Shown here in pieces: positions 1,412-24,000 of a stretch of DNA of 24,000 bases. Numbering within the stretch: the first letter of the stretch is position 1; each line of letters begins with the position of its first letter. Where the stretch lies: NCBI GenBank assembly GCA_029856045.1, contig JAHQWG010000016.1:227921-251920 (forward strand), read 5' to 3'. This DNA comes from Promethearchaeia archaeon. GTDB taxonomy: Archaea > Asgardarchaeota > Lokiarchaeia > Sigyniarchaeales > SOKP01. The position numbers were made by a program, and so were the translations under genes. The notes under the pieces are model-generated. The model did no database searches, was not told the DNA's origin, and saw only the letters and a program-made list of their open reading frames with translations.

Positions 1412-3208
1412 GTGAAAGCAAAAAAACTTGGATCAGATGAGATAATTCAAGCAGAAAGTTTGAAGTTTGCAAAATATTTATCGAACAATATGAATCAAGA
1501 ACAAATAAATCATACTATAAGAGATTCCCCATTCCAAGAGTTTAAATCATTACCAAAATTATTTAAAGATAAATCAAATCATCCTAATAATACGATCCTT
1601 CGAATTTATTCTATACTTTTATCTTCCTTCAAAAATTCTTCGTTTAAAATTATACAATTTCCTTTTATTAAAACCCCATCTTTCATTTTTATTATTCATG
1701 GCAAGATTTTCCATAAAAACAGGATAATATTTAGAGCTTTTGGAAAAGGATTAACAATTGCGTTATCAATGGCTAGTCTTTACGGAGAATTTATTGAAAG
1801 AATTCAAGCAGGGTTTTTTTTTTCCCAAAATCCTTACAAACCTCGGGTTATCCCTTATTATGAACCAAGTAATTCTAAAATAATTACAGAGCAAATGAAA
1901 AAACTCAATTTTCAAGATTTTTTACCTCTTTTTAAAGAAAAATGCTATCCATTTGTAGAGAAATTACTACCTTCTGAAAAAGAATTATTATATTACTGCC
2001 CTTATCAAGATTTAACCTCTAAAAAAATTACCTGGATAATGACTAGGGTGAATAGATTCACTACTGGATTTGCAAGCGGAAATTCCTACGAGGAAGCACT
2101 TGTACAAGCATTTTGTGAAATTATTGAACGTTATTCTTCATTTATGGTTTTAAAAAATCAAATTAAATTGCCAACAATTCCTAACCATAAATTATCTTCA
2201 CAGATTCAAAATATCATTAAAAAATTCGAGCAAGAAGGCATACAGATTATAATTAAAGATGCTTCTCTTGATTTGAATATTCCTTCCGTTGCAGTATTAT
2301 TTATTTTTGAAAAAAGAAAATCAAAAAGATTCTTAATTACTTTTGGCGTCGCTTCTTCTCTAGATGTTGCAGTAGAACGATGCCTCGGCGAAGCTGAACA
2401 AGATGCAAATAGTATAACAACACGTAGTATATTTAATCACCAATATTGTCGTTCAATTATTAACCTATACAACACATTTCCGCATTTAAAGAAGATTTTA
2501 CCTCTTAGGGATTATTTTGGTGAATCTTACGCACAAAATAACTTTTACCCTTCTGAATATGTAGAATTTTTAAAAGAGGATTATGGAGCCCCTGAATATG
2601 AAGAATTTTATAAAATTGATTTATTGGATGAAATTAATTATATTTTTCATTTCCTAGGTAAAAAGGGTTATCGAATTTACATGAAAGATTGTAACTGGTT
2701 AGGTTTTCCTTGCATAAAACTTTTTATACCAGAATTAAATGTTGGTTACGGCCAATTGATTAAATATTCTAATTTTAAGTTCGAGAAATTTAAACAGAAA
2801 TTATTAACTAACTTTTCTGATATTACTAAGGATGATTTAAAAATTTTGGATACTCCTGAATTCATCTTATTGCTTTCTCATTTAAAAACTTTAAATAGTT
2901 TTTTTCAGATTGATTGTGAAAGTTTAGAGCGATATAGTTCGTGGAAGTTTTTTGGACTATTGGCATTTGCACTAAATCGTGAAAAATTAGCAATAAAATA
3001 TCTCAAACAGGTTGCACTTTCAGTTCCAAAATCTAAAAATAAAAAGGAAATACTTTCTGAATTAGGAATAATTCTTCCAAATTGCCAACAAAAATCATGT
3101 GAATCTTGTAGATTTAAAAGAGAATGCAAATTTCCTATTCTAAAAGATTTTGAATCAACGGTTGTAAAGGAATTTCCAAATCATTTACGCAGATTAGAAG
3201 AAATATAG
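1412..3208 (+). CDS. ycaO: YcaO-domain protein (ATP-dependent amide-activating enzyme family) with a C-terminal helical, Cys-rich extension
   Basis: 598-aa ORF with two YcaO hallmark segments: GKGLTIALSMASLYGEFIERIQ and GFASGNSYEEALVQAFCEIIERYS. The C-terminus contains CQQKSCESCRFKRECKF. The track start is GTG at 1412; the first in-frame ATG is at 1490. Confidence 0.8.
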   Translation: MKAKKLGSDEIIQAESLKFAKYLSNNMNQEQINHTIRDSPFQEFKSLPKLFKDKSNHPNNTILRIYSILLSSFKNSSFKIIQFPFIKTPSFIFIIHGKIFHKNRIIFRAFGKGLTIALSMASLYGEFIERIQAGFFFSQNPYKPRVIPYYEPSNSKIITEQMKKLNFQDFLPLFKEKCYPFVEKLLPSEKELLYYCPYQDLTSKKITWIMTRVNRFTTGFASGNSYEEALVQAFCEIIERYSSFMVLKNQIKLPTIPNHKLSSQIQNIIKKFEQEGIQIIIKDASLDLNIPSVAVLFIFEKRKSKRFLITFGVASSLDVAVERCLGEAEQDANSITTRSIFNHQYCRSIINLYNTFPHLKKILPLRDYFGESYAQNNFYPSEYVEFLKEDYGAPEYEEFYKIDLLDEINYIFHFLGKKGYRIYMKDCNWLGFPCIKLFIPELNVGYGQLIKYSNFKFEKFKQKLLTNFSDITKDDLKILDTPEFILLLSHLKTLNSFFQIDCESLERYSSWKFFGLLAFALNREKLAIKYLKQVALSVPKSKNKKEILSELGIILPNCQQKSCESCRFKRECKFPILKDFESTVVKEFPNHLRRLEEI

Positions 3209-5076: not shown

Positions 5077-5883
5077 ATGAGAGATTTTAGAATTATTCAG
5101 CATATCAACCTCTCACTGGATTCATTAAAAGATCCTATTTGTCTCCTCGGTATGCCTGGCATAGCCGATGTAGGCAAGTTCGCAATCGATCAAATCATTG
5201 GTCTCTTAAAGGCAAAACCATATTTAGAAATTATATTTAATGATTATCCAGCAGGAGCTATCGTTGATGATAGTATATTATCTGCCCCTAAAGCAGAAAT
5301 AATGTTTTGGAAGGATCCAAACAATATAAGAGATCTTTTGTTAATTACTGCTGATTCCCAAGCACTTAATCCCAAGGGAATTTATAAAATATCAGATTTT
5401 ATAGCAAGTCTAATGTATAAATTTAGAATAAAATTAATAATTTCTCTCGGAGCTTTTCCAACTAATAGTCCATCAAAATCTCCTTCGATATTTTTTAGTA
5501 CAACAAATAAAGATTTTATTGATCAATTTATCAAGGACGGAAAATGTAAAAAGATTAAAAAAGGAGTTATCGTTGGAGCGAATGGTTTAATTCCCACATT
5601 AGTAAAAGCCAGATTTAATATTGATGGAATTGTATTTTTAGCAGAAACCGATAATATTGCGGTAATTAATGATGAGATTACAGACTTGAAGGCGTCTATT
5701 ACTTTAATTAATTTATTAAAAGATAACTTTAATTTACCAATTGAAAGAAAATATACATTAGAAAAAATTGATGAGATTACTAAAAATCTACAAATCAAGA
5801 AAGAGAAATTAGAGCGTGATTTAGATAATTTCCACCTAATGGATAAAAATTCCGAAGAAAAAAGGAAATCATTATATATTTAA
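5077..5883 (+). CDS. PAC2-family proteasome assembly chaperone (PbaA/PbaB-like)
   Basis: The N-terminal ICLLGMPGIADVGKFAIDQIIGLL is typical of PAC2/COG1938 proteins. A coiled-coil-like C-terminal tail ends in ...KSLYI, a hydrophobic-Tyr-X (HbYX-like) terminus. Confidence 0.65.
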   Translation: MRDFRIIQHINLSLDSLKDPICLLGMPGIADVGKFAIDQIIGLLKAKPYLEIIFNDYPAGAIVDDSILSAPKAEIMFWKDPNNIRDLLLITADSQALNPKGIYKISDFIASLMYKFRIKLIISLGAFPTNSPSKSPSIFFSTTNKDFIDQFIKDGKCKKIKKGVIVGANGLIPTLVKARFNIDGIVFLAETDNIAVINDEITDLKASITLINLLKDNFNLPIERKYTLEKIDEITKNLQIKKEKLERDLDNFHLMDKNSEEKRKSLYI

Positions 5884-6121: not shown

Positions 6122-7057
6122 TTAATGTTCAATATTAAAATTTAATTTTAATATTAGCTCTTTATACCGAGTTCTTACGGTTGCTTCTGTTATTCCAGCA
6201 ATATCTGCAATTGCTTTTTGGGTGCGACGTTCATCAGTTTGAATTGCAGCGATGTAAAGTGAAGCTGCAGCTAAACCTGTAGGCGCTTTTCCTACAGTAA
6301 TATAATGTTTTTGAGCTAACTGTAGGATTTTTGCAGCTTTATTTTGAGTTCTACCTGATAAACTCAAATCCGCACAAAATCTTGGAATAAAGTCGATTGG
6401 TGATGATACTCTCATATTTCTTATTTTTAATTCTTTTAATATTAATCTATAGCAACGCCCCAACTCTTTTTTTGTAATAGAAGAAAATTCGATAAAATCG
6501 TCTAAAGTCTTTGGTAAACCCTTTATTCTACAAGTAGTGAATAAGGAAGCTGCTAACATAGCTTCAATCGATCGACCCCTTATTAAATTCTTATAAGCCA
6601 TCTTTCTATATACTATCGCAGCCGATTCTTTAATAGAACCTGGCAGATTTAATTGAGAACAATATCTATCTAGTTCATTCATAGCATTTGCCAAATTTCT
6701 ATCAATTGATTTATGTATCCGTGATCTAGTATGCCATTTTCTTAATCTATGAACTTCTGCTTTCATTTTTGGACTAATTTTTTTGCCATGTGCATCTTTA
6801 TCTTTCCAATCTATTGTTGTACTTAATCCTTTATCGTGTAGTGTAAATGTAGAAGGAGCTCCAACTCGAATTTTTTTAGCTTTCTCTTCTGATGAAAACG
6901 CTCTCCAATCTGGTCCGGAATCAATAATTCTTTGATTAATTACTAATCCACAAGTGTTACAAATGATTTCCCCTCTAGATAAATCTGAAATAATCGAGAA
7001 ATTACCACATTCCGGACATTTCTCAAAATTTATCTCGTTTTCATCTTTAGTAGTCAC
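6122..7057 (-). CDS. tfb: Transcription initiation factor IIB (TFB)
   Basis: N-terminal Zn-ribbon CPECGN...CNTCGLV, followed by two cyclin-fold repeats (GRSIEAMLAASLFTTCR..., GKAPTGLAAASLYIAA...RTQKAIADIAGITEATVRTRYKEL). GTG start, preceded on the - strand by GAGGGT 8 nt upstream (SD-like). Confidence 0.95.
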   Translation of the reverse strand: MTTKDENEINFEKCPECGNFSIISDLSRGEIICNTCGLVINQRIIDSGPDWRAFSSEEKAKKIRVGAPSTFTLHDKGLSTTIDWKDKDAHGKKISPKMKAEVHRLRKWHTRSRIHKSIDRNLANAMNELDRYCSQLNLPGSIKESAAIVYRKMAYKNLIRGRSIEAMLAASLFTTCRIKGLPKTLDDFIEFSSITKKELGRCYRLILKELKIRNMRVSSPIDFIPRFCADLSLSGRTQNKAAKILQLAQKHYITVGKAPTGLAAASLYIAAIQTDERRTQKAIADIAGITEATVRTRYKELILKLNFNIEH

Positions 7058-7228: not shown

Positions 7229-7717
7229 ATGACATTAAATTTTTTTAATCGTATTCATGGAAAGCATTGTTTATTAAGGGCTTTTAAAACTGTTTGTCCT
7301 AGATGTAAAAATGATGTGTTCTATTGGGAATGTTCTCATGGATCTAAGGTATTTTTTGAATATCCAATATATGGGCGATTAATCCGACATAAATGTAAAA
7401 AACACTTAAATATAGAAAACTTAAAAAAAAAAAATCATATTGAGGTAAAAATCCCTTTTTTTATAGAAAAAGATAATTTTGGTTGCCCAATTTGCGGAAA
7501 AATTTTTAATAAAAAAAATCAACTTGTTGATCACATAAAACAGTTAAAAAAAAGTGATGAAGCTCATCATAGCTTCTATAATAATAAACTTAATTTTAAG
7601 ACGGAGTCAGAAATATTCAATTATAATTTAACCAAAAATTTAAATGAAAATGATAATAAAAATCATTATAAACCGACTTTCGGTAAGATTACAATTATCA
7701 ATAAAAAATCAAGTTAA
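7229..7717 (+). CDS. Zinc-finger protein with one C2H2-like finger; function unknown
   Basis: FGCPICGKIFNKKNQLVDH fits the classical x-C-x2-C-x3-F-x5-L-x2-H pattern, but the second His is not at the canonical +3-5 spacing. The N-terminal half has additional Cys/His clusters (CPRCKN...CSH...HKCKKH). Confidence 0.45.
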   Translation: MTLNFFNRIHGKHCLLRAFKTVCPRCKNDVFYWECSHGSKVFFEYPIYGRLIRHKCKKHLNIENLKKKNHIEVKIPFFIEKDNFGCPICGKIFNKKNQLVDHIKQLKKSDEAHHSFYNNKLNFKTESEIFNYNLTKNLNENDNKNHYKPTFGKITIINKKSS

Positions 7718-7807
7718 TATAAAAATAATTACATTAAAAAATTAAAAATTTAATATATTTTAACAAATTTATTTTTAATACAAACAAAAAAATAATTATT
7801 GATTTTT

Positions 7808-8413
7808 ATGTCTATTGATTATGAAGGAATTATATCTGAATTGATGCAAAGAGATCCATCTATAATTGCCATTGCGGTTATAACAGGAGCTCGAGATATT
7901 GTTTATTCAACAGATAATTGGGATATTAGCTCAGATATTAGTAAAGTTTCATCTGCATGGAGTTCAATGAATGCTCAGTTTGTAATGATTTCTGGTGTAA
8001 AATACTCCATGTTACAATGTACTATTGAAAGAATGGTATGTACTAACATAAAAGGGCAGGGACACATTGTTGGGGCTAAGGATGATGAGCATAAAATTAT
8101 TGCATATGTCGAACCCGAAGCGGATATAAATGGTGCTTATATGGATACAGCTCGAACCTTATCTAAACTAAGTTCAAAAACCCCCTATTTGGAAGAAAAT
8201 GCCCGATTAGGAACTTCCCAACCAGTAGCTCCCGTTTCTGGAGGAGAAACTATTGATCCTCAACTAAAAAGTGAAATTACGGCTTTTCTTGATTGGATAA
8301 AAGCCGAAGATGGGCTTTCGGGATATCTAAGTTATTATCTTCAACAAAATAATGCAAATATCATGAGCGAATTGGCAAAAATTTATAATGATTTACGCAA
8401 TATTTGTCAATAA
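7808..8413 (+). CDS. Profilin-like domain protein with ~70-aa C-terminal extension
   Basis: Residues 1-125 follow the profilin pattern. An N-terminal helix (DYEGIISELMQ) is followed by AIAVITGARDIVYSTDNWDIS..., then GVKYSMLQ...IKGQGHIVGAKDDEHKIIAYVEPE...NGAYMDTARTLSKL. Compare plant profilin G.KYMVIQ...KKG.GG...K....L....Y.EP......C....E.L.DYL. The track start is TTG at 7799; ATG at 7808 is the likelier start. Confidence 0.55.
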   Translation: MSIDYEGIISELMQRDPSIIAIAVITGARDIVYSTDNWDISSDISKVSSAWSSMNAQFVMISGVKYSMLQCTIERMVCTNIKGQGHIVGAKDDEHKIIAYVEPEADINGAYMDTARTLSKLSSKTPYLEENARLGTSQPVAPVSGGETIDPQLKSEITAFLDWIKAEDGLSGYLSYYLQQNNANIMSELAKIYNDLRNICQ

Positions 8414-8638: not shown

Positions 8639-9772
8639 TTGTCTTATGATAATTTTATATTTATATTTGATGCTCAAAATGAAATTGGGGGTTTTTGGAA
8701 AGGTGAATTTGCTGAAGAATTTGATGAAATTTTTGCTAAGGAAATTATAGAAAAAATTATTAAGAAATTTGGTGAATTAGATTTTAGGATTTTCGATACA
8801 TTAGATCCAAAAAATGAAGAAGATAATAATAACAAAATCTTAAAAATTGAAATCTTAAAAAGATTACCTAATAAGACCCTTTGGAAAATTAAAAGAAGAA
8901 TTTCGTCCTTATTTGTATCTAAAAAAATTATATCTAAAATTGGAGAATTTCGTACATTTGATAGTTCATGGAAATGGCGTAGAGACTTATTAAATTTAGA
9001 TAATATTAATAAATTGTCAATTACAAATATATTAATTATGTTTTTTACCATATTCTTTATTTATAATATAGGAATTTTACAATTGTATGATGGAACTCTT
9101 TCTTTTTTGTTTATTATTTTTATTTTATTAGCTTTAACTATAGTTAACTTAATATTTGTTTTATTTCCAATGAGATTTCCTGGAATTATAAAAAAAATAA
9201 TTAATTTAGAAGATAAGGAACATGAAGAGGAAGAAGTCCAGACAAGAAAAATTGAAGAAATAAAGGTCATTAAAGAACCTCTTAAACCATCTGTCCCTAT
9301 CTTACCTTCAGAGCAGAAATTCGAAGTATCGTCAAAACTTCTATCTTTAATTAAATCTAATACTTCATCAAAAAAAAATGAAAAGGAAAAAACAAAAAAA
9401 GAAAAAGAAAAATCATTAGAATCTCTTAAAGATGGAAAATCTGACCTAAAAATCCCAGAAGTTCCAGTAGCTCCTCCAAAACAGATAGTAAAACTCGATT
9501 CCCCCGAAATTTCTCCCGAACTCTTAAAAAAAATAACTAAAGGAGAAACTAAAGAAATAAAATATATGCTTGTTAAATGTGATAGATGTAATAAAATAAT
9601 TGCATTTCCTGTTCCAAAGAAAAAAGTTCTTAAATCAGAATTACCTGTTGTTCCCATTTCATATATTCATGGAAAGGGAAAGGAAAGACACTGTTTAACA
9701 GCTCATGTTGATCATGATTTTGATATTAGACGACGGCGGGTTTCTGATGTTGTATTTGAAGAATTGGAGTAA
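8639..9772 (+). CDS. Membrane protein: N-terminal soluble domain, two TM helices, a K/E/P-rich linker and a C-terminal Cys/His domain; function unknown
   Basis: Hydrophobic segments are ILIMFFTIFFIYNIGILQLY and LSFLFIIFILLALTIVNLIFVLF. The low-complexity linker has Pro-containing stretches (PLKPSVPILPSE, IPEVPVAPPKQ). The C-terminus reads VKCDRCNKIIAFPVP...SYIHGKGKERHCLTAHVDHDFDIRRRR. TTG start, with no early in-frame ATG. Confidence 0.5.
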   Translation: MSYDNFIFIFDAQNEIGGFWKGEFAEEFDEIFAKEIIEKIIKKFGELDFRIFDTLDPKNEEDNNNKILKIEILKRLPNKTLWKIKRRISSLFVSKKIISKIGEFRTFDSSWKWRRDLLNLDNINKLSITNILIMFFTIFFIYNIGILQLYDGTLSFLFIIFILLALTIVNLIFVLFPMRFPGIIKKIINLEDKEHEEEEVQTRKIEEIKVIKEPLKPSVPILPSEQKFEVSSKLLSLIKSNTSSKKNEKEKTKKEKEKSLESLKDGKSDLKIPEVPVAPPKQIVKLDSPEISPELLKKITKGETKEIKYMLVKCDRCNKIIAFPVPKKKVLKSELPVVPISYIHGKGKERHCLTAHVDHDFDIRRRRVSDVVFEELE

Positions 9773-10971: not shown

Positions 10972-11337
10972 ATGAATATAATTGCTGAAAAGAAGGTTCA
11001 AATAGATAATATTACTATTTATCTTACTTTACTAAAATTATATCGAGGCTATGTTCTTTTTATATCTGATCAAGAAAATTTTGGATTAGGTTCTATTACT
11101 TTAAGCACACCACCTTTAAATGATGTTCTAAAATCAACATCTGTTTCGTATCAACTGTTTGGAATGGAACATAACTTATTATCTAAAATGATTGTAGAAA
11201 AAGCAGCGAGTAATTTAAAAGAACCAGTTATATTATTATTTTTTTTAAAGGAAAAAGAAAAGGAGAAGGAACTCATTAAGCCAATTATAACATTGCTCAA
11301 TCAAATTTTAGAGGAATATGAGAATTTTAAAAAATAA
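10972..11337 (+). CDS. Hypothetical protein, possibly PAC4-like proteasome assembly chaperone
   Basis: 121-aa ORF with host-like composition. The pattern YVLFISDQENFGLGSITLSTPP...STSVSYQLFG...LLSKMIVEKAASNLKEPVILLFFL loosely resembles the PAC4 (PSMG4) family. This is a recollection only. Confidence 0.3.
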   Translation: MNIIAEKKVQIDNITIYLTLLKLYRGYVLFISDQENFGLGSITLSTPPLNDVLKSTSVSYQLFGMEHNLLSKMIVEKAASNLKEPVILLFFLKEKEKEKELIKPIITLLNQILEEYENFKK

Positions 11338-11689: not shown

Positions 11690-12661
11690 TTAAGGCCTAA
11701 GCAGTCTCACCGTGGAGGATCCACCCCAACTCCTAGTGCAAAGCCTATTGCCTGGACGGTGCGAATCCAAACGAGCCCGCCCAAAGTCTCGATGCCACCA
11801 CCCAGTCGGCACAAGGTCACTTTTTACACGTTTTACATATTTTACATATTGACCAAGAAACCATAAGGCATTGTTATCATACCTGTCATTACTTACTTCA
11901 TTGGTTGTTTCGAGGTGGAAAAGAAATTTTGTAATAAAATCTTCAAGTGTTTTTCCTGTTTCTCCTTGATAAGCTTGCGTCTGTAATGTTCGTAAGTAAT
12001 CACGAGGAGAAGAGCCTATTTCTAATTGTCTTCTGCCTCCTAATGTCTTTCCTCGGCCTTGTTGAGGCATAATGGGTAAACTTTCAACTAATCCCACAGA
12101 CCAGCCTGGAACGGCACAAATACGTCCATTATTGACTACTTCTAATTTGGTCTGTCCCCGATGATTGCTTGAATATTCTTGAGGAAAATATACAAGCTCG
12201 TCTGTATCTAGTGCCTGTCTTAAGGTATCCCATATCCAGACATGTTTTTCGGTATTGACACGAACAGGTATTAAAGGATCAGAAGGAGAATGTCTGGTTT
12301 GATAAATCTTTCCTTCTGCTGCGTGTTTAAGAATAGCTGCTTTCATTCGATCAATAAGAAGGGATGTTGGCATTGTCATGGGTGTTAGCTCTAAACGATC
12401 AAACCCTTGTGGAACTTTTCTACCTACAAGCTCTCTATTATGATCAAATAGTTCTACAACCTGTTCTTGGGTTGGTATTGGATACTCTTTTCCATCTATT
12501 CCAATCACCCCAATGCTTTCTGATTTCGGAAGAAGCGTGAGAATGCCGGTGCGGTTTAAGGCGGTAACGCAACGGGCATATTCCCTTTCAACAGGAAATA
12601 ACTGTTCTGATTGAGGATCTCCTTCCATGTGCGCTGATGCGTCTATAGGTTGTTTTGACAT
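11690..12661 (-). CDS. Orphan 323-aa protein of foreign composition; no family recognised
   Basis: Uninterrupted ORF with an ATG start. Hand-counted GC is 35/60 (11701-11760), 23/60 (12241-12300) and 30/60 (12541-12600). Neighbouring genes give 17/60 (11041-11100) and 16/60 (13021-13080). The protein is R/G/P/Q/V/T-rich, unlike the K/I/N-rich host proteins. Confidence 0.6.
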   Translation of the reverse strand: MSKQPIDASAHMEGDPQSEQLFPVEREYARCVTALNRTGILTLLPKSESIGVIGIDGKEYPIPTQEQVVELFDHNRELVGRKVPQGFDRLELTPMTMPTSLLIDRMKAAILKHAAEGKIYQTRHSPSDPLIPVRVNTEKHVWIWDTLRQALDTDELVYFPQEYSSNHRGQTKLEVVNNGRICAVPGWSVGLVESLPIMPQQGRGKTLGGRRQLEIGSSPRDYLRTLQTQAYQGETGKTLEDFITKFLFHLETTNEVSNDRYDNNALWFLGQYVKYVKRVKSDLVPTGWWHRDFGRARLDSHRPGNRLCTRSWGGSSTVRLLRP

Positions 12662-20511: not shown

Positions 20512-20989
20512 TAAAACCTAATTAATATTTATTATCTCTTTAAGAATATAAAAAACATAAAATTTATAATTTCAAAGATCTTTTAATACTATGTTAGTAT
20601 TAAATTTATAAGTTATTGGGAGCAAACTATTTCATCCTCGCCCCAAAAAGGGATGCAATATCCTAATAACTAGCACAAATATCATGGAAGAAAATCAAAA
20701 ATCTCGGGGCATTTGATTTATCGGGAAATGATGTTTAAGCTAGGCACAAGGAATTTAAAATTTTTATAATTACATAATAATTAACTTGGAAATACACTTT
20801 AGAATATTAAGAATTTTGATAATTATTGATTTTTTTAACTCCAAGCTTTCCATATATCTCTTAATCTTGTGCTCATAGGAATATATTCTTCCAAACAGGT
20901 AATCGTCTTAGGTATTAAAAATATTTAAGAAATTAAATAAAACAAACTAATCCTAAATATAAGCACTCTAAATCTTCCTCTGAGTATTA

Positions 20990-24000
<3,011 letters not shown>

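Follow-up and report, generated by a model that had tools for sequence, protein, structure and literature searches.

To our knowledge, the actin regulators characterized in Asgard archaea to date are single-domain profilins and gelsolins only. The solved profilins of Odin (5ZZA) and Loki (profilin-1 and profilin-2; 5YED/5YEE and 5ZZB; Akil and Robinson, 2018) consist of one domain of 119–136 amino acids, the Loki and Odin proteins do not bind poly-proline, and no machinery for actin nucleation or recruitment has yet been found in Asgard archaea (PMC9433394, PMC8410842). Here we describe a profilin of another build, a 201-residue "long profilin" encoded in a stretch of 24,000 nucleotides (hereafter "the window"; GenBank assembly GCA_029856045.1, contig JAHQWG010000016.1, positions 227,921 to 251,920 of the forward strand) from an Asgard archaeon, whose DNA has a GC content of ~27%. 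Compared with the Odin and Loki proteins it carries 80 additional residues, made up of a short motif, a spacer and a three-helix module. We put at about 0.5 the probability that the long profilin is a conserved, Asgard-specific two-domain profilin paralogue in which a profilin is tethered to a protein-docking domain. An arrangement of this kind has parallels elsewhere: the eukaryotic Ena/VASP and CAP/Srv2 combine a domain that handles G-actin with flexible linkers and a small helical oligomerization or docking element, and so cluster the delivery of actin monomers. The likeness to the long profilin would be one of architecture only, there being no sequence or detectable fold relationship.

Added segments are known from the Heimdall and Thor profilins (6YRR, 7PBH; PMC8410842), and there, as in the long profilin, the addition could modulate or direct function. 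The Heimdall/Thor extension is N-terminal, disordered and ~20 residues long; it occurs in ~5% of Asgard profilins, probably with independent origins, and modulates the binding of poly-proline and PIP2 (PMC8410842). The addition in the long profilin is instead C-terminal, includes a folded domain of 54 residues, is highly conserved, and is shared with proteins that are not profilins. An N-terminal extension of the Heimdall/Thor type is missing from the long profilin, since helix 1 begins at residue 5 and the N-terminus is common to the homologues. The literature covered here, which does not include the survey of Ponlachantra et al. (2023), describes N-terminal extensions only and no C-terminal domain on an Asgard profilin. 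The original prediction for this locus (made from the sequence alone) did not associate the C-terminal part with any described profilin; no literature was found on a "Loki profilin-3." The profilin part is known biology; for the module and for its distribution there appears to be no earlier description.

The profilin domain

The gene and its parts are as follows:

7808..8413, forward strand: coding sequence of the long profilin (201 amino acids; 22.2 kDa, more exactly 22.21; isoelectric point (pI) 4.6), stop codon included
7808..8170, forward strand: profilin domain, residues 1–121 (N-terminal helix, beta-sheet and C-terminal helix 107–121; predicted local distance difference test score (pLDDT) ~85 in AlphaFold2)
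7979..8047, forward strand: three-strand motif, residues 58–80, FVMISGVKYSMLQCTIERMVCTN (model strands 58–61, 64–71 and 75–80)
8171..8212, forward strand: post-helix motif, residues 122–135, SSKTPYLEENARLG (semi-conserved, predicted disordered)
8213..8248, forward strand: spacer, residues 136–147 (variable, rich in Ala, Ser, Gly and Pro)
8249..8410, forward strand: three-helix module, residues 148–201 (helices ~151–165, 170–179 and 183–200; no known family)

The open reading frame (ORF) runs from an ATG at 7808 to a TAA at 8411–8413. The mechanical ORF list gave the start as a TTG at 7799; we place it at the ATG because the homologues all open with M-[PS]-x-D.

Residues 1–121 are a bona fide Asgard-type profilin, nearest to Odin profilin. 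A phmmer search against all PDB chain sequences returned four significant matches, every one an Asgard profilin: Odin 5ZZA (E 2.5e-14), Loki profilin-1 5YED (4.2e-11), Loki profilin-2 5ZZB (5.6e-11) and Thor 7PBH (3.2e-10), the next PDB matches having E ~0.5. Identity to the homologous Odin and Loki domains is ~30–32%, with template modeling scores (TM) of 0.79–0.91. The GVKYS...ER..(A/C)TN..GQGHIVGA core is shared closely with Odin profilin, and as in Odin the alignment has no Loki-type extended loop. Among themselves the long profilins are 50–95% identical; the characterized profilins are much less conserved. The Pfam profilin model PF00235, proposed as a check by the original prediction, does match the protein, but at 16.7 bits (E 0.0084) the score lies below the gathering threshold of 25 bits; sub-threshold scores are typical for Asgard profilins, and a precomputed PF00235 match is present in a few members of the family (P0061, P0287). 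A search of NCBIfam with the whole long profilin gave no match, and a CymA match in the Pfam/NCBIfam search of the whole protein and extension was spurious.

An AlphaFold2 model of the full-length protein, built on 26 family members, has helices (H) and strands (E) in the order H5–15, E19–26, E30–34, H44–53, E58–61, E64–71, E75–80, E86–91, E95–101 and H107–121, which is the order of the profilin fold, the three-strand motif standing in for half of the central Roadblock helix. Foldseek comparison of the model with the PDB placed Odin profilin (5zza_P) first (TM 0.91 on the target, root-mean-square deviation 1.4 Å), followed by the Loki and Thor profilins and then by those of yeast, Acanthamoeba, plants and human (TM of the eukaryotic profilins 0.75–0.79). 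Prometheoarchaeum Roadblock dimers rank 23rd at best (TM 0.67–0.73, deviation 3.9–6 Å), and neither the Pfam nor the PDB phmmer search of the long profilin gave a Roadblock match. An identity as Roadblock/LC7 is thus not borne out, given the lack of a sequence match, the structural ranks of 23 or lower and the replacement of half the central helix by strands.

The original prediction had called the first ~125 residues profilin-like, and the PDB search (5ZZA, 2.5e-14) and the Foldseek comparison (TM 0.91) bear this out; the best match to Roadblock/LC7 that it named as counting against it did not occur. The motifs it quoted are all in place (DNWDIS at residues 36–41, GVKYSMLQ at 63–70, KGQGHIV at 82–88 and IIAYVEPE at 97–104), as is the C-terminal helix of the domain, AYMDTARTLSKL, at residues 110–121. 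The best-conserved part of the domain is the three-strand motif, with a top-residue frequency of 0.87 over 224 members and close similarity to the matching stretch of Odin profilin in the PDB sequence search. In the solved structures of Asgard profilins bound to actin, this profilin-specific element contacts the actin (PMC10933270).

The C-terminal extension and its three-helix module

With 201 residues and an extra folded C-terminal domain, the long profilin exceeds the single-domain format of ~120–150 residues. The predicted C-terminal extension is present, although it comprises ~80 residues (122–201) and not the ~70 first proposed; the quoted linker, TSQPVAPVSGGET, lies at residues 136–148 and the helical stretch at 150–198. 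Alignments of 26 members (A1) and later of 224 members divide the extension into the motif 122–135, the spacer 136–147 and the 54-residue module 148–201. The post-helix motif follows the consensus SSKxPY[LIM][DE]xxxQLG (family form SSKxPYLDxNAQLG), with a top-residue frequency of 0.64 over 224 members; Y127 is invariant in alignment A1, and S122 and G135 are nearly so. The spacer varies from 1 to 21 amino acids and shows almost no conservation (top-residue frequency 0.33 over 224 members).

The module was predicted to be helical, and when modeled alone with 38 diverse sequences it forms three helices at a pLDDT of 91.1 (6–20, 25–34 and 38–55 of the 56-residue construct). The same three helices are found in the full-length model at a pLDDT of 60–70; the predicted TM score (pTM) of that model is 0.55, and the packing between domains is not confident. 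Because the linker (residues 125–148) has a pLDDT below 50 in the full-length model and varies in length, whereas the module alone reaches 91, the models show the module as a separate, autonomously folding domain without known relatives.

Sixteen positions of the module are invariant in 17 sampled members (D150, L153, F160, W163, G169, L170, G172, Y173, Y176, Y177, Q180, L189, Y193, L196, R197 and I199), and its conservation is about that of the three-strand motif. Over the 224 members, the module has a mean pairwise identity of 0.81 and the profilin domain one of 0.70. In a comparison of the window copy with its three closest relatives (92–95% identical), the ratio of nonsynonymous to synonymous polymorphism (pN/pS) was 0.12–0.18 for the module and ~1 or undefined for the linker, on small counts; among these close relatives the substitutions indicate that the module is under purifying selection and the spacer is evolving freely, again on small counts. 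Judged by the identity of 0.81 versus 0.70 and by the pN/pS of 0.12–0.18, the module is functionally important.

No family in Pfam or NCBIfam matches the module. Searches of the PDB sequences with module profiles A2 and A3 gave nothing significant, the best matches (E 0.019–0.03) being to unrelated proteins, and Foldseek found no match whatsoever to the isolated module in the PDB. Three candidate families were rejected: the villin headpiece (HP67; hhalign probability 0.5%, no Pfam VHP match, no Foldseek match), the docking domain of PKA RII-alpha (hhalign 0.9%, no Pfam or PDB profile match) and Dpy-30 (hhalign 0.2%, no Pfam or PDB profile match). The module is acidic (pI 4.4) and has no basic patch of the KKEK type. 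It is a confidently folding domain family of 54 residues, found so far only in Asgard archaea.

The module and the profilin domain on other proteins

When the module profile was searched exhaustively with HMMER against 1.84 billion representative proteins, only 56 matches emerged, of which ~52 are true. Four giant proteins (P0147, P0155, P0175 and P0176) are adhesin-like repeat proteins and were set aside as spurious, their scores being sums of weak matches to a repeated TDADGLSGPISYQWQRDG motif. The true matches are mostly long profilins or fragments of them, in which the module forms the very C-terminus. The other architectures that combine the module, the profilin domain and further domains are:

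P0125, P0182, P0134 and P0126: Ras-family GTPase, Zn-ribbon and module
P0184 and P0186: GTPase, last profilin helix, motif 122–135, spacer and module
P0131: GTPase, module, gelsolin repeat and profilin (ends at the contig end)
P0127: coiled coil, module, poly-proline, profilin and Zn-ribbon
P0166: leucine-rich repeats (LRR) and module
P0189: beta-propeller, poly-proline, Zn-ribbon and module
P0185 and P0187: GTPase, poly-proline and a long-profilin-type profilin, without module
L083:2335-3327: GTPase, poly-proline and profilin

In P0184 and P0186 the entire C-terminal unit, from the last profilin helix to the module, appears from its sequence to move as one piece. Several of the fusions were recovered from two independent data sources, and one sits on a 76-kb contig with many Arf/Ras GTPases; on contig L083 the gene for P0127 comes immediately after a GTPase-Zn-ribbon-profilin gene and overlaps it by 44 nt. 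Fusions are seen for each of the pairs GTPase-module, GTPase-profilin and profilin-module, and because the three are each fused pairwise, the architectures carry what reads as the classic signature of components of one pathway with a portable interaction domain.

The mosaics (L083:2335-4231; P0125, P0127, P0131, P0134, P0182 and P0184–P0189) hold their domains in varied orders. Their parts are the Ras-like GTPase, Zn-ribbons, poly-proline (for example, PPLPPPSLHPPPPPKQPGDP), the long-profilin-type profilin, the gelsolin repeat and the module, and a frequent ending is YPYIFxPPxPPDDF...APQVQLRAPLK together with CQYCGxKLTKEEQxTHSCKKKP. Where poly-proline stands directly before the profilin domain on a GTPase, the arrangement is reminiscent of the logic of formin FH1 and profilin.

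Distribution of long profilins

The search for homologues of the long profilin returned 597 protein clusters; the best 120 of the 597 are 188–212 amino acids long, cover 93–100% of the query and are 57–94% identical to it. Relatives turned up in at least 130 species genomes when one genome per GTDB species was scanned, and in the best 80 of the 130 genomes every relative is full-length, all of them from Asgard metagenome-assembled genomes (MAGs). The architecture, which the original prediction had regarded as unusual, is instead conserved and syntenic among Asgard genomes of the Lokiarchaeia type. Searching with a profile of divergent members extended the reach to Lokiarchaeon CR_4, to a closed Lokiarchaeota genome of 4.36 Mb and to Helarchaeota.

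One full-length long profilin (59% identity, usual genomic context) comes from a contig deposited as "Candidatus Nanopelagicaceae bacterium" (L034, DATKTW010000006.1), which is probably an Asgard contig mis-binned into an actinobacterial MAG. In the long profilins of Helarchaeota (L088:8001-8744; P0362, P0365 and P0370), of 238–258 amino acids, the shared profilin core is joined through ~70 residues of Gln/Pro-rich linker to a different-looking three-helix C-terminus, IIWEVEEFRKYVERGDFEAFLRNLLSEGDQVKIWEILKLIRHFKSL; this C-terminus, at most a possible relative of the module, can be aligned with it in register, though weakly (hhalign E 0.0023, probability 12.6%).

The conserved neighborhood

Synteny was compared over 82 related loci. 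The long profilin is flanked by genes for TFIIB/TFB, RNA polymerase subunit P, a PAC2 proteasome chaperone and aRF1, by genes of CoA biosynthesis and by an archaeal 23S rRNA gene. The 90 bp upstream of it are extremely AT-rich, T-runs follow its stop codon and the next ORF lies 225 bp downstream; the gene therefore looks monocistronic. Three of its neighbors need to be set out:

7229..7717, forward strand: zinc-finger protein of 162 amino acids, the upstream partner (weak, sub-threshold C2H2 match in Pfam)
8639..9772, forward strand: membrane protein orf377 of 377 amino acids, the downstream partner
6122..7057, reverse strand: TFIIB/TFB gene (Pfam TFIIB, 2.3e-41; 80 of 82 loci), a synteny anchor outside the system

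The zinc-finger gene, labeled "Zinc finger protein (C2CH type)" in asCOG, is found ~575 nt upstream of the profilin gene in 78 of the 82 loci, and is also present in the closed Lokiarchaeota genome L087; the downstream membrane protein is present in 68/82. A block of housekeeping genes is kept as a whole, with GT4, ThiI, PAC2, RpoP and TFB on one side and an aldolase, UMP kinase and pantoate kinase on the other. Since this whole block is syntenic across the 82 loci, a functional link of the profilin with TFB, RpoP or PAC2 was rejected. In L087, TFB and RpoP lie on the opposite side of an intact trio; the zinc-finger gene, the long profilin and the downstream membrane protein, all co-oriented, behave as a unit, as they stay together although TFB and RpoP switch sides.

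The downstream protein orf377 consists of a shortened, divergent gelsolin-homology-like N-domain, transmembrane segments, a Lys/Glu-rich spacer and a C-terminal CxxC...H..C domain. A long form that includes the N-domain occurs in 6 of the 82 loci, the clade of the window among them. The N-domain of the orthologue in L002 matches villin (2e-6), gelsolin (1.5e-4) and adseverin, and orf377 is homologous to this orthologue over its full length (34% identity, E 9e-56). With orf377 alone, which has ~22 N-terminal residues fewer than the L002 orthologue, a sequence search gave no gelsolin match; profile A5, built from four N-domain sequences, finds almost exclusively gelsolin-family chains (villin, 5e-7; the Asgard gelsolin-like 7C2F, 3.7e-3). 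The N-domains of orf377 orthologues thus match the gelsolin family that includes the described Asgard gelsolins (Thor ProGel, 2DGel and 2DGelX; 7C2F; PMC7444086), from which orf377 differs in being a membrane protein, with its transmembrane segments and C-terminal CxxC domain.

Orthologues with an N-terminal gelsolin-homology domain lie at L002:8717-9841, L007:2844-4019 and L087:8709-9410, and the accessible literature on Asgard gelsolins describes no membrane-anchored protein of the gelsolin type. For the CxxC...H..C domain (VVLVNCERC...HC.T.H.DHDFDIRRRR) Pfam offers no match, and it is this part of the protein that most genomes conserve.

Other genes of the window

No actin gene was found among the ORFs of the 24-kb window. 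A gene of the YcaO cyclodehydratase family (598 amino acids; 1412-3208, forward strand) lies between the GT4 glycosyltransferase and a conserved 143-residue ORF; it is present in two of the 82 otherwise syntenic loci, which makes it a lineage-specific insertion into the conserved block. An ORF of 323 residues (11690-12661, reverse strand), with no Pfam match and no homologue in any of the 82 loci, lies in a stretch of slightly raised GC content (0.33–0.35) and may be a further insertion of this kind. The block also holds a clear PAC2-family gene (5077-5883, forward strand) and an ORF of 121 residues (10972-11337, forward strand; 78 of 82 loci) with a sub-threshold match to PF16093 (proteasome assembly chaperone 4; E 0.009), which may encode an Asgard PAC4-like chaperone.

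A complete archaeal 23S rRNA gene occupies 20988-23991 (forward strand), its GC content of 45–50% standing out from the background of 27%. It is directly preceded by protein-coding genes (DUF72, PanE), and no 16S rRNA gene lies within 21 kb upstream, so that the 16S and 23S rRNA genes appear to be unlinked in the source genome.

A probable counterpart in Lokiarchaeum ossiferum

The orthogroup table for the cultured archaeon L. ossiferum lists, in order, PanB, DUF72, PanE, "Zinc finger protein (C2CH type)," an uncharacterized protein, "Profilin," "Gelsolin domain" (cog.006527), TFIIB and, further on, HD and PAPS reductase; the "Profilin" orthogroup corresponds to asCOG cog.000262;cog.005416, and the listed genes are found in both L. 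ossiferum and MK-D1 (PMC9834061). The long profilin of L087 lies within exactly this order of genes.

Two profilins of L. ossiferum are named in a 2025 preprint on Asgard motility (bioRxiv 10.1101/2025.11.30.690169). B35_Pro2, of 14.47 kDa, was enriched with Lokiactin (log2 ratio 1.07, p 0.0018); B35_Pro1 (GNAMCCOK_02671 / UYP46361.1), of 22.82 kDa, was detected by proteomics, at about four times the abundance of B35_Pro2 in the proteome (mean log2 19.51 vs 17.38). The long-profilin family ranges from 20.4 to 23.2 kDa, into which B35_Pro1 fits, and from mass and synteny B35_Pro1 is probably the long-profilin orthologue, assigned to cog.005416; the likeness is one of size and gene order. The profilin part of the long profilin is therefore probably already labeled as profilin in L. 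ossiferum. Neither the preprint nor PMC9834061 describes a C-terminal domain on B35_Pro1 in the portions accessible.

Proposed role and alternatives

The profilin domain would bind monomeric Lokiactin through its conserved three-strand face, as in the solved Odin and Loki profilins, because the actin-contacting strands are the best conserved and are close to those of the Odin profilin crystallized on actin. The module, judging from the architectures in which it is found, may be a protein-protein docking domain, either self-associating (homotypically, with the module-bearing GTPases included) or binding one shared partner. Docking would gather profilin-actin at one particular place, or direct it there, instead of letting it diffuse freely, and recruitment by the module would be analogous, not homologous, to the recruitment of eukaryotic profilin by the poly-proline of formin or VASP. 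The conserved neighbors, with a zinc-finger protein on the upstream side and a membrane-anchored gelsolin-homology protein on the downstream side, suggest that the site of action may be the cell membrane or cortex. The original prediction had ventured that the fusion could tether the profilin domain, and the presence of the module on GTPases and on LRR and beta-propeller proteins fits such a tether.

Several observations weigh against this two-domain, docking interpretation. Docking by the module is deduced from domain architectures alone, and the module-bearing GTPase fusions are rare (~10 clusters vs ~600 long profilins), mostly on short contigs and probably from few lineages. The downstream protein lacks its N-domain in most loci, and the gelsolin-like domain of the window copy is shortened and divergent. 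The exact C-terminus is not essential, because the clade of the window ends in ...RNICQ where the family has ...RQIFGV. The enrichment of B35_Pro1, the probable orthologue, in the Lokiactin co-immunoprecipitation was not significant (log2 0.31, p 0.17; bioRxiv 10.1101/2025.11.30.690169).

A more specific form of the docking proposal is that a homotypic module brings profilin-actin together with module-bearing Ras-like GTPases at the membrane, close to the membrane-anchored gelsolin-type protein; we offer it tentatively, and think it has perhaps one chance among several. Were it true, it would be an archaeal link from GTPases to actin assembly that fills the place of the eukaryotic axis from Rho-GTPase through formin/WASP (poly-proline) to profilin-actin with another recruitment device, and the rare mosaics of GTPase, poly-proline and profilin (with or without gelsolin) would be fused versions of the same pathway.

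Regulation within the molecule is an unlikely but serious alternative, in which the module or the 122–135 motif would fold back as an autoinhibitory or regulatory tail and tune the binding of actin, phosphoinositide or poly-proline. The regulatory extensions of other Asgard profilins (PMC8410842) are a precedent, the flexible linker permits folding back, and the motif beside the last profilin helix is semi-conserved. The idea is weakened because GTPases, an LRR protein and a beta-propeller protein carry the module without any profilin domain; the module is, moreover, more conserved than the profilin domain, and the full-length model shows no confident packing (pTM 0.55), the module scoring lower in context (pLDDT 60–70) than alone (91).

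Rather improbable, in our estimation, is that the profilin fold has been repurposed as a partner of small GTPases and acts in GTPase signaling instead of on actin, with the module joining the protein to the GTPase. The profilin fold is related to Roadblock (Foldseek; PMC10933270), its structural relatives Roadblock/MglB and the longin domains have just such a role, fusions to Ras/Roc-type GTPases recur for both a long-profilin-type domain and the module, and the preprint data show no significant enrichment of the probable L. ossiferum orthologue with Lokiactin. The sequence homology, however, points specifically to profilins that bind actin; the three-strand motif that contacts actin and takes the place of the Roadblock dimerization helix is the most conserved part and is near to Odin profilin; the fusions include gelsolin and poly-proline, which are elements of an actin pathway; and a conserved neighbor has a gelsolin-homology domain.

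We regard as very doubtful a module that provides a second actin-binding site, for example on the filament side in the manner of the villin headpiece, so that the protein would bridge G-actin and F-actin. A small three-helix domain at the C-terminus of an actin-binding protein does recall villin, and module, gelsolin and profilin domains come together in P0131; against this stand the hhalign probability of 0.5% for the villin headpiece, the absence of any Foldseek match in the PDB, the acidic character of the module (pI 4.4, without the KKEK-type patch) and its presence on LRR and beta-propeller proteins with no obvious link to actin.

That the protein is an artefact, either of two adjacent genes merged or of read-through into non-coding DNA, has nothing but the disordered linker in its favor and is effectively refuted: at least 130 genomes and ~600 clusters keep the single ORF over its whole length, the linker contains no stop, the module is under purifying selection, and proteomics of L. 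ossiferum detected a profilin-annotated protein of matching mass (22.82 kDa).

Implications

Asgard genomes thus hold a second, more strongly conserved class of profilin, with a portable domain that some Ras-like GTPases also bear, encoded beside a membrane-anchored gelsolin-like protein. Experiments are feasible because the long profilin is probably expressed in a cultured species. The protein is a concrete candidate for the positioning of profilin-actin in Asgard cells, and it hints at a coupling of small-GTPase signaling to actin before eukaryotes arose.

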